Virus record (IMG/VR): IMGVR_UViG_3300025834_000005
Origin: a virus
Reading direction: 5' to 3' (one strand)
DNA length: 64,000 nt
Below, in pieces: positions 25,652 to 26,472 of the stretch. Position numbers and translations under genes: made by a program. Below the pieces are notes generated by a model. It did not search any database. It saw only the letters and a program-made list of their open reading frames with translations, and was not told the origin of the DNA. Every line of letters starts with the position of its first letter. Within the stretch, counting starts at the first letter, position 1.

Positions 25652-25726
25652 GGCTCATTATATTAGCGGTCAGATGGCGGAATTCTAAACTCCGAGACGT
25701 GGGTTCGAGTCCCACACGAGCCACCA
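25652..25726 (+). tRNA. Amber suppressor tRNA(CUA), class I, genomically encoded CCA
   Basis: Acceptor GGCTCAT/ACGAGCC (one A-C mismatch). Anticodon arm CGGAA-TTCTAAA-CTCCG. T arm GTGGG-TTCGAGT-CCCAC. 3' end is A-CCA. Confidence 0.7.
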
Positions 25727-25744
25727 AAATTTATAAATAAGTAA

Positions 25745-26032
25745 ATGAATAAAATAATTGCGGAAGATTTATATTCTGAAAGTCCTGATAAATTTAAGGT
25801 GTTTAGAGAATGGGGTGCTGTTAATGCGTCAGTTACAAAATTTTTGTATAACGCAACACCTAAGACATTTATATTTCTTTTTGGTGAAGATGAAGGAATG
25901 AGACTTTGGGGACATTTTTGTAATGACTGCAATAGAAAAGATTTTACGTTATTTAAGACGTATTTATCGTCAACACAATTTAATGATCTGCTTGTGAATA
26001 TCCATTACAATGAATTAATATTCTGCTTATGA
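25745..26032 (+). CDS. Hypothetical protein
   Basis: 95 aa ORF directly after the suppressor tRNA. Confidence 0.55.
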   Translation: MNKIIAEDLYSESPDKFKVFREWGAVNASVTKFLYNATPKTFIFLFGEDEGMRLWGHFCNDCNRKDFTLFKTYLSSTQFNDLLVNIHYNELIFCL

Positions 26033-26074
26033 AATGAATATTTATAAATCAATAAAAGAATTTAAAAAAAAGAC

Positions 26075-26105
26075 TTGCATAATTGAATTATTTAGTTTAT
26101 TTTTG
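26075..26105 (+). promoter_or_regulatory. Bacteroidota-type promoter
   Basis: agacTTGCATaattgaattatttagttTATTTTTGcag, ~35 nt before ATG 26140. Confidence 0.5.
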
Positions 26106-26139
26106 CAGAGTTAAGTATTTAATATAAAAACGTAGTATT

Positions 26140-26472
26140 ATGAAGAAGTAGATTAAGTTAGTAACGATCACCAGAAAAGACCTGAAAGCAGGTTACCAGT
26201 TATGCCAAACCTCACATTCTGTGGCCGAGTTTGCATACACTTATCCAGATCATTTCAATGATTGGATGCGAGATTCCAAATATCTCATTTCATTGTCTGT
26301 CGATAATGAAGACCACCTCAAAACCCTTTTTGACAAATTAAAGACCAATGGTGCTACTATTGTGGCATTCACTGAACCTGATATTAACGATCAGCTGACA
26401 TCGATATGTTATTACGGCACACCTGAGTTGAGAAAATTAACTGACCATTTGGATTTAGCATTAAAAAATTAA
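26140..26472 (+). CDS. Peptidyl-tRNA hydrolase 2 (PTH2)-like protein with in-frame TAG at codon 4
   Basis: ATG AAG AAG TAG ATT AAG TTA GTA.. is in frame with the track ORF (GTG 26221). The 27 residues upstream of the GTG (IKLVTITRKDLKAGYQLCQTSHS) carry the PTH2 R-D-L..G..Q..H signature. Confidence 0.5.

Follow-up and report, generated by a model that had tools for sequence, protein, structure and literature searches.

Lak phages, crAss-like phages and other phages of the gut have reassigned the stop codon TAG to glutamine (genetic code 15: Borges et al., 10.1101/2021.08.26.457843; Al-Shayeb et al. 2020, PMC7162821; Peters et al. 2022, PMC9523058). In such phages suppressor tRNAs permit the translation of late genes with many in-frame stops, and a standard-code phage with an acquired suppressor tRNA has been described as a possible precursor of a change of code (Borges et al., 10.1101/2021.08.26.457843). 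Here we analyse a stretch of 64,000 nucleotides (nt) of viral DNA (IMG/VR virus record IMGVR_UViG_3300025834_000005; the whole stretch is referred to as the window), in which a gene for a protein with the fold of peptidyl-tRNA hydrolase 2 (PTH2) carries TAG as its fourth codon and stands downstream of a gene for a tRNA with the anticodon CUA, tRNA(CUA). We consider it probable that the two constitute a two-part cassette: a suppressor tRNA, and a PTH2-fold gene that is gated by it through a stop of its own at codon 2-5. Hydrolases of any kind go unmentioned in Borges et al. (10.1101/2021.08.26.457843). As in the code-15 phages, a phage tRNA(CUA) is found together with in-frame TAG, the DNA is AT-rich and TAG is a rare terminator; for those phages, too, it has been proposed that suppression delays or gates certain genes. 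Unlike in the code-15 phages, there is one stop-bearing gene per sampled genome, the stop stands at codon 2-5, the tRNA is linked to its target, TAG still terminates other genes, the gate never drifts to a glutamine codon, a version with TAA and tRNA(UUA) exists, and the suppressor tRNAs are of mixed origin.

Two further systems invite comparison. In the bar minigene of phage lambda a tiny open reading frame (ORF) sequesters tRNA as peptidyl-tRNA and is toxic when peptidyl-tRNA hydrolase (Pth), the enzyme that clears dropped-off peptidyl-tRNAs, is limiting. Like this minigene and the bacterial 'start-stop' elements, the present locus has an ORF of 2-4 codons, usually with lysine as the last sense codon, and five huge-phage start regions together with the lineage of mycobacteriophage Bxz1 have literally ATG-TAG. 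The likeness to bar appears to be one of form only (ATG, zero to three codons and a stop, with lysine last): unlike a minigene, the mini-ORF runs on in frame into a conserved coding region and has as its partner a tRNA predicted to read its stop. Programmed read-through in viruses (the A1 protein of Q-beta, retroviral gag-pol) also involves a stop within a functional frame that is sometimes decoded; there the decoding is done by near-cognate tRNAs of the host, often with the help of downstream RNA structure, and yields a C-terminal extension. The arrangement described here differs in having a virus-encoded cognate suppressor and no conserved structure, and in having its stop at the N-terminus, so that the outcome would be all or nothing. 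In full-text searches we found no paper linking suppressor tRNAs with a stop-interrupted hydrolase gene, and the authors of the XacN1 genome found no targets for that phage's suppressor tRNAs (PMC5852040).

The PTH2-like coding region lies on the plus strand at 26140..26472 and comprises 110 codons including TAG. It opens ATG AAG AAG TAG ATT AAG TTA GTA ACG...: the start and two lysine codons (26140..26148) precede the in-frame TAG at codon 4 (26149..26151; hereafter the gate codon), after which the frame is open until TAA at 26470-26472. The first canonical start past the TAG is GTG 26221. The ORF of 83 amino acids that begins there (26221..26472, plus strand) is the product of a standard-code gene caller; on the 328-kb source contig it was called as the identical database protein P0002. 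A sequence-only reading of this DNA had placed the ATG in frame with that ORF and had held that a start at the GTG removes the N-terminal strand and signature of PTH2; both points are borne out, the 27 residues lost including strand beta-1 and the TR-x-DL...Q..H motif.

To follow the gate codon in relatives, homologous DNA was gathered from IMG/VR, from five huge-phage genomes in GenBank and from 80 metagenome loci of JGI, and a protein search gave 146 relatives of the PTH2-like protein. The sequence-only reading had asked whether relatives carry a sense codon at this position. None does: across 78 distinct start regions the gate site is TAG in 75 and TAA in three. The ATG stands one to four codons before the stop (nine in three cases), and a lysine codon (AAG or AAA) directly precedes the stop in 58/79. 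The codon that follows, in 74 distinct sequences, is GTA (33), GTT (23), ATT (15), ATA (2) or AAA (1), and the base after the stop is always a purine (G or A); amber suppression in E. coli is favored by a purine after UAG. Usually there is no usable start codon past the gate, yet the strand encoded there, [IV]KLVT[IV]TR, is conserved, and amino-acid conservation is continuous from the first codon past the TAG (IKLVTITRKDL...). Synonymous change around the gate is free: the arginine codon at +8, for example, may be AGA, AGG, CGA, CGC, CGT or CGG. Of the nine single-base neighbors of TAG eight are sense codons, and the sole variant found is TAA. Because this is the only variant while flanking codons vary synonymously, the sequences indicate that a stop at the gate is under selection. 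TAG itself, moreover, appears to be chosen, since TAA is the usual stop of window ORFs (of 60 ORFs of at least 100 amino acids, 46 end in TAA, 11 in TGA and three in TAG). No conserved RNA structure was found around the stop (none by RNAalifold; mean z -0.05).

Gene callers obscure this pattern. Full-length database relatives read MKKQIKLV or MKQVKLV, and their DNA has TAG at the position of Q: the glutamine is a code-15 gene call on short contigs, and we rejected a TAG-to-glutamine assignment based on these proteins. Long contigs, which are called with the standard code, give truncated proteins instead, so that the same gene is either shortened to 83-97 residues or supplied with a false glutamine. 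Some truncated calls bear unrelated names, such as 'chaperonin GroEL' and 'predicted lactoylglutathione lyase' (among P0007, P0076, P0089, P0103 and P0111). As no homologue has a sense codon at the gate, the inserted amino acid is not inferable from homologues.

The tRNA(CUA) gene occupies 25652-25726 on the plus strand (75 nt by ARAGORN; anticodon 25685-25687; encoded 3' CCA 25724-25726), so that the ATG of the PTH2-like gene lies 413 nt downstream. Rfam model RF00005 matches it with 51 bits against a gathering score of 29 (E 1.7e-9). The cloverleaf is that of an ordinary class I tRNA, with two A.C mismatches (6:67 and 31:39), a seven-nucleotide anticodon loop TTCTAAA in which CUA occupies positions 34-36, and a 3' end GCC-A-CCA. 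ARAGORN and Rfam thus agree with the class and loop first read from the letters, as does the count of 3' ends with the earlier remark that other tRNAs here lack an encoded CCA: among the 34 ARAGORN tRNAs of the window only tRNA(CUA) has one (0/33 for the rest). The name 'tRNA-Pyl' that ARAGORN assigns reflects the CUA anticodon alone, and we rejected it. A tRNA-Pyl has a special architecture (an anticodon stem of 6 bp, a small D loop without GG, a variable loop of 3 nt) and goes together with pylS and pylBCD genes, whereas the present tRNA has a 5-bp anticodon stem, GG in the D loop and a 4-nt variable loop; a Pfam scan of 14 window proteins gave no match to a pyl gene, no search aimed at pyl genes having been made.

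The PTH2-like gene and its suppressor stay together in relatives. A matching suppressor tRNA was found in 43 of the 46 distinct loci having at least 1.5 kb of upstream sequence, and every locus of the window's clade with enough upstream sequence has it on the same strand, 29-3684 nt before the gene. The protein genes that flank the pair are not conserved (6/75 and 5/73 loci), there is no conserved partner protein gene beside it, and on many short contigs the suppressor is the sole tRNA. In one locus, L187, the gate is TAA and a tRNA(UUA) lies 353 nt upstream; this tRNA is ~85% identical to the tRNA(CUA) of the sister locus L183, so that in this locus anticodon and stop have changed together. 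In the remaining two TAA loci the upstream sequence is shorter than 1 kb. Synteny with a gene that has an early UAG, and this one case of joint change, offer indirect support that tRNA(CUA) is expressed, aminoacylated and able to decode UAG.

The suppressors themselves are diverse. By their acceptor stems the 66 distinct suppressor tRNAs belong to several unrelated families, which implies that the tRNA was replaced repeatedly while the stop stayed. To judge from the sequences, the identity of the inserted residue is probably irrelevant. The tRNA(CUA) of the window is an outlier in having the loop TTCTAAA (CTCTAAA is usual) and an encoded CCA, and it resembles none of 210 other phage tRNAs (best score 16 of 75). 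Typing of the suppressors by similarity to those 210 was inconsistent (nearest matches were tRNAs for Arg, Gly, Phe, Asn and others) and was abandoned. A collection of genomes gave, as regards cellular homologues or a clue to the host, two contigs only, each deposited as part of a metagenome-assembled genome (MAG) of a cell: L198 (JBAZIW010000001.1; 362,763 bp, with the same coordinates as IMGVR_UViG_3300029288_000055) is filed in a 'Candidatus Paceibacterota' MAG, and L199 (CAYPTZ010000242.1), a relative of 5.9 kb, in an 'uncultured archaeon' MAG. By their appearance the two contigs are phage DNA that was binned into cellular genomes.

That the gene product has the PTH2 alpha/beta fold is established by structure prediction and profile comparison. 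The read-through product scores just below the cutoff of Pfam PF01981 (22.9 bits against 23.0), many homologues carry a precomputed match to it, and the family profile finds the PDB entry 2zv3, a Pth2, with E 4.6e-6. An AlphaFold model of residues 5-110 has a mean predicted local distance difference test score (pLDDT) of 95.5 and a predicted template-modeling score (pTM) of 0.88; with this model the top 13 PDB matches of Foldseek are all of the Pth2 family (template-modeling scores 0.74-0.82, E down to 6e-8), including 2zv3, 3erj, 1q7s (Bit1), 1wn2, 1xty and 1rlk. The TR-x-DL...Q..H motif aligns with solved Pth2 enzymes. The phage family thus has the fold of archaeal and eukaryotic Pth2 (PF01981; 2zv3, 3erj, 1xty, 1wn2 and human PTRH2/Bit1, 1q7s), as well as their N-terminal strand and R-x-D-L...Q-x-x-H. 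Unlike canonical Pth2 it has conserved F-x-E-P-D and Q-L-T-x-I-C in place of the C-terminal motifs, and it is divergent in a two-residue deletion; the acidic E-P-D, a possible counterpart of a catalytic aspartate, is nearly invariant. Mutagenesis of the S. solfataricus enzyme reportedly identified as catalytic the lysine of the N-terminal 'GK' and an aspartate in the C-terminal half.

A related arrangement occurs in mycobacteriophages. In Bxz1-like mycobacteriophages (~205 GenBank records) a homologue annotated 'peptidyl tRNA hydrolase' is preceded in frame by ATG TAG. The mycobacteriophage PTH2-like proteins (Bxz1 gp154, Myrna gp84) show 29-33% identity, and their start regions read ATG TAG GTG in Bxz1, GTG TAG GTG in Myrna and ATG TAG ATG in an IMG/VR relative (L206). 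As in the window, a start and TAG precede the homologous coding region and a tRNA(CUA) is close; unlike in the window's clade, where the tRNA is upstream, it lies 130-330 nt downstream of the gene (300 nt in Bxz1-like phages, 130 nt in Myrna). GenBank labels this tRNA(CUA) 'tRNA-OTHER' in Bxz1 (Bxz1_gt155; locus NC_004687.1 94756-95509) and tRNA-Ser in Myrna (33522-33593; locus EU826466.1 33036-33593). Because a start-TAG element and an amber suppressor tRNA are common to both, the sequences suggest common ancestry of the mycobacteriophage and huge-phage cassettes; Bxz1, its 78%-identical IMG/VR relative and Myrna are mutually related, which makes them limited as independent evidence. The early stop is absent from the PTH2-like homologues of Aeromonas T4-like phages and from the canonical PTH2 of XacN1 (ORF295), though XacN1 has two tRNA(CUA) genes.

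In the mechanism that we propose, translation would begin at ATG 26140 and proceed through fMet-Lys-Lys to UAG. Should release factor 1 arrive there first, only the tripeptide would be made; should a charged tRNA(CUA) decode the UAG, the full protein of 110 residues would follow. The amount of enzyme would then roughly follow the expression, maturation and charging of the suppressor tRNA, and without these none would be made. With the gate at codon 2-5 failure would be cheap and the inserted residue unimportant. The rest of the genome, where sampled, is in the standard code.

Several observations weigh against this mechanism. The evidence for read-through by tRNA(CUA) comes from sequence, and joint variation of anticodon and stop is represented by a single informative locus, L187. 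The megaphage genome LR745206.1 keeps MNN-TAG-ATT and has no recognizable tRNA(CUA), tRNA(UUA) or tRNA(UCA) genome-wide: a search for a hidden tRNA(CUA) in it gave one poor candidate with relaxed ARAGORN settings and nothing usable in a scan for stem-loop and T-loop. Two more megaphage loci lack a suppressor within 5 kb. In megaphages without a suppressor a weak start at ATT, or read-through by another tRNA, is possible. Bxz1, Myrna and the IMG/VR relative, furthermore, have GTG or ATG right after the TAG, and in Bxz1 and Myrna this start stands 7 nt after a Shine-Dalgarno-like GAAGG or GGAGG; with a canonical start following TAG, the mycobacteriophage gene need not depend on suppression. The lysine of the 'GK' of canonical Pth2 is replaced by tyrosine, glutamine or alanine in the family, whose hydrolase activity is a prediction from fold. 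Finally, the code of this phage itself was sampled over ~25% of its contig.

The megaphage and mycobacteriophage cases bear on an alternative in which ATG-Lys-(Lys)-TAG is an upstream ORF of 2-4 codons and the hydrolase is made by non-canonical initiation or reinitiation right after the stop, at ATT, the suppressor tRNA being unneeded or merely modulating. ATT follows TAG in the window and in 5/5 megaphage genomes, LR745206.1 does without a suppressor, and the mycobacteriophages offer canonical starts with good Shine-Dalgarno spacing in Bxz1 and Myrna. Indeed, the sequence-only reading had allowed either for TAG read-through or for a rare ATT start. The latter does not generalize: the next codon is GTA or GTT in 56/74 sequences and AAA in one, and to our knowledge none of the three is used as a start codon. 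Any stop, moreover, would serve to end a mini-ORF, TAA being the commonest, yet 75 of 78 are TAG; the TAA alternative comes with a tRNA(UUA), and the tight synteny with a matching suppressor is left unexplained. We regard this alternative as unlikely.

A different prediction follows if TAG has been reassigned throughout the genome, in the manner of the Lak and crAss-like phages, and the window is merely an early region compatible with the standard code: in-frame TAGs should then be common elsewhere. The window holds ~60 ORFs of at least 80 amino acids, its large ORFs have no internal TAG, and the few other early TAGs are followed by obvious ATG starts or overlap with tRNA genes; only the PTH2-like gene requires read-through, in agreement with the earlier statement that the other large ORFs are intact. 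The same holds for the 80.9 kb covered (the window and stitched flanks) of the source contig, ena:ERZ27245488:k141_1156773 (328,453 bp), where there is a single gene of this kind and the bases in ORFs of at least 200 amino acids increase by a factor of only 1.004 if TAG counts as sense. In LR745206.1, taken whole (634,780 bp, complete), ORFs of at least 300 amino acids gain by a factor of 1.011, and 102/102 ORFs of at least 400 amino acids are intact, including a putative sheath and baseplate (judged by N-terminal sequence only). LR756500.1 (462 kb), a genome with a tRNA(CUA), gives factors of 1.004-1.044 in five stretches of 50 kb that make up 54% of it. Syntenic genes in relatives have no in-frame TAG, and in the loci of the clade TAG ends 48/539 distinct ORFs of at least 100 amino acids (about 9%).

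Kinship speaks for reassignment: among complete genomes those of the huge phages in Al-Shayeb et al. 2020 (PMC7162821) are nearest, and the largest in that study share the Mahaphage clade with the TAG-recoded Lak phages; recoded phages possess suppressor tRNA genes and have early genes that keep to the standard code (Borges et al., 10.1101/2021.08.26.457843), so that a quarter of a contig might mislead. Against it stand the single read-through gene in 80.9 kb, the lack of any gain in ORF length in LR745206.1 and the sampled LR756500.1, long putative structural genes included, and the ORFs beside the cassette that still end in TAG; in recoded phage families with standard-code hosts 26-71% of genes have in-frame stops (Borges et al., 10.1101/2021.08.26.457843). 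Under reassignment the gate should also drift to CAA or CAG, which it never does, and the variant with TAA and tRNA(UUA) cannot be reassignment because TAA is the main terminator. Thus, of the features of a genome-wide code 15, a tRNA(CUA) is present, while neither many in-frame TAGs nor the loss of TAG as a terminator is seen in the DNA sampled. The first reading's view that gating is specific to one gene draws support from the conserved stop, from synteny, from co-variation and from TAG as a terminator elsewhere; reassignment we consider very unlikely.

Further searches concerned the use of stops. The back-up stops noted earlier (TAG-TAA at 42894-42899 and TAG AAA GAC TAA at 39622-39633) exist, but the argument built on them fails, being at chance level: the next in-frame stop follows the three TAG-ended window ORFs after 1, 12 and 40 codons and, in loci of the clade, lies a median of 19 codons after TAG (n=48) as against 9 after TAA, and back-up stops are not nearer after TAG than after TAA or TGA terminators. 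No other credible gene consisting of ATG, zero to three codons, a stop and a long ORF was found in the window or in LR745206.1, the hits there overlapping tRNA genes or having a true ATG close by. A frame of 199 codons with two TAGs just outside the window was rejected as two separate small genes that share a frame. A search for structural genes of the window's clade by way of the putative sheath of LR745206.1 gave 80 loci, all from relatives 64-82% identical to LR745206.1, and 0/80 on previously found contigs of the clade.

Nor does leaky read-through by a near-cognate host tRNA, with low expression and a suppressor nearby only by way of tRNA arrays, account well for the data. The DNA is rich in tRNAs (34 in the window; related loci have as many as 15), and LR745206.1 has no suppressor. 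Throughout the window's clade, nonetheless, it is the matching suppressor that stands upstream on the same strand despite dozens of other tRNA types; its anticodon tracks the stop in L187, and many short contigs have no other tRNA than the suppressor. We see scant probability in this explanation. A pseudogene or assembly error in one isolate, for which nothing speaks except the presence of the stop, can be dismissed almost with certainty, the feature recurring in 92 loci from independent metagenomes and complete genomes with a strongly conserved downstream protein.

If suppressor gating is correct, it may be asked why a hydrolase of this type should be gated. Its purpose would most likely be to couple tRNA-recycling activity to nonsense suppression, which is the weakest step of the argument. 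Suppression and competition with release factor should increase ribosome stalling and the drop-off of peptidyl-tRNA, and a hydrolase made in step with suppressor activity could clear peptidyl-tRNAs from stops that are slow or read through. In this connection, few peptidyl-tRNAs drop off faster than fMet-Lys-tRNA, and slow reading of the A-site codon favors drop-off (PMC10192219). Alternatively, the enzyme might limit the suppressor pool and so exert negative feedback. A more ambitious proposal, which we hold with considerable reserve, is that the pair senses nonsense suppression and regulates it by feedback as a self-contained circuit: read-through at codon 2-5 would gauge the competition between suppressor and release factor; the output, a PTH2-fold enzyme, would clear fMet-Lys-tRNA and other dropped peptidyl-tRNAs or discharge the suppressor; and suppression would be kept at a tolerable level.

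Features around the cassette are as follows. The plus-strand sequence TATTTTTG (26098..26105) fits TAnnTTTG, which we take to be the Bacteroidota-type -7 promoter consensus, and ends 35 nt before ATG 26140. This motif ends 15-60 nt upstream of the start in 7/62 window genes, compared with 2.4 +/- 1.4 at random placement, which hints faintly at a separate promoter for the PTH2-like gene and a Bacteroidota-like host. The PTH2-like gene has no evident Shine-Dalgarno sequence ahead of it, and this absence together with the motif is in agreement with such a host. No DNA nearly identical to the window was found among GenBank phages. A candidate terminator, a hairpin followed by a run of T (25583..25604, plus strand), was picked up by a consensus scan only; it lies between an ORF at 25317-25556 and tRNA(CUA). 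Between the tRNA and the PTH2-like gene is an ORF of 95 amino acids (25745..26032, plus strand) that has no Pfam or PHROG match. With a homologue upstream of the PTH2-like gene in 5/73 loci, it is not a conserved part of the cassette.

The 34 tRNA genes lie at 15674-45361 in several plus-strand arrays. Some, whose types do not as a rule have a long variable arm, are predicted to be 82-87 nt long (Cys 35878-35963, Gly 36707-36793, Met 38048-38133, Thr 39772-39858, Asn 38413-38494), and may contain insertions or be mispredicted; two are called 'tRNA-???' with two-base anticodons (19082-19154 and 37090-37165). In LR745206.1 a tRNA with an eight-base anticodon loop (407364-407437, within L028; 'gtag' in ARAGORN) stands in a cluster of Asp, Pro and Gln tRNAs. 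Other megaphages have peculiarities at or near the gene. In LR756501.1 (L016; 735 kb) the PTH2-like gene is interrupted in frame by another TAG (EFP-TAG-IYEQW), and 2.4 kb downstream there is a tandem pair of tRNA(CUA) genes that differ in sequence; TAG may be used more freely in this genome. In LR756500.1 (L018 5322-5345) ATG AAG TAG ATT recurs directly after the stop of the PTH2-like gene, followed by a short frame only. In LR745206.1 an ORF of 196 amino acids ~650 nt downstream (L015 5992-6582; genome 339161-339754) starts ATG AAT ACT TAG ATT, and may simply begin at in-frame ATGs at codons 14-15.

Farther from the cassette the window encodes a B12-dependent ribonucleotide reductase (27217-29766), a VWA-domain protein (30122-32428) and, in tandem, proteins with BspA-type leucine-rich repeats and DUF285 (4651-7480; also L209 8159-9913), which possibly have a role at the surface or in host recognition. 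About 2 kb past the end of the window a small TAG-ended ORF (L210 14087-14949), uncalled by the source's gene caller, encodes a signal peptide and a lipobox-like sequence (MKNLKSLLVLVLLMFTLTMFSC...), and two genes for factors of the sigma-70 family are close by (L210 12979-13533 and 16219-16761).

Many large standard-code phages carry 'orphan' suppressor tRNAs, for which no target is known; here a conserved and specific target adjoins the tRNA, and by its fold that target is an enzyme of the translation-quality-control type. Since the culturable mycobacteriophages Bxz1 and Myrna carry a related arrangement, direct testing is feasible. If read-through is correct, the pair would be a natural switch for one gene made of a tRNA and a stop codon, likely an early stage on the way to stop-codon reassignment in phages, and the family would supply many different natural suppressor tRNAs (66 distinct) that each come with a reporter context of their own. 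If the more tentative sensor circuit were also true, it would be the first fixed recoded gene in otherwise standard-code genomes and a stepping stone to reassignment: an old and mobile device common to huge phages, thought to infect Bacteroidota, and to the mycobacteriophages Bxz1 and Myrna.

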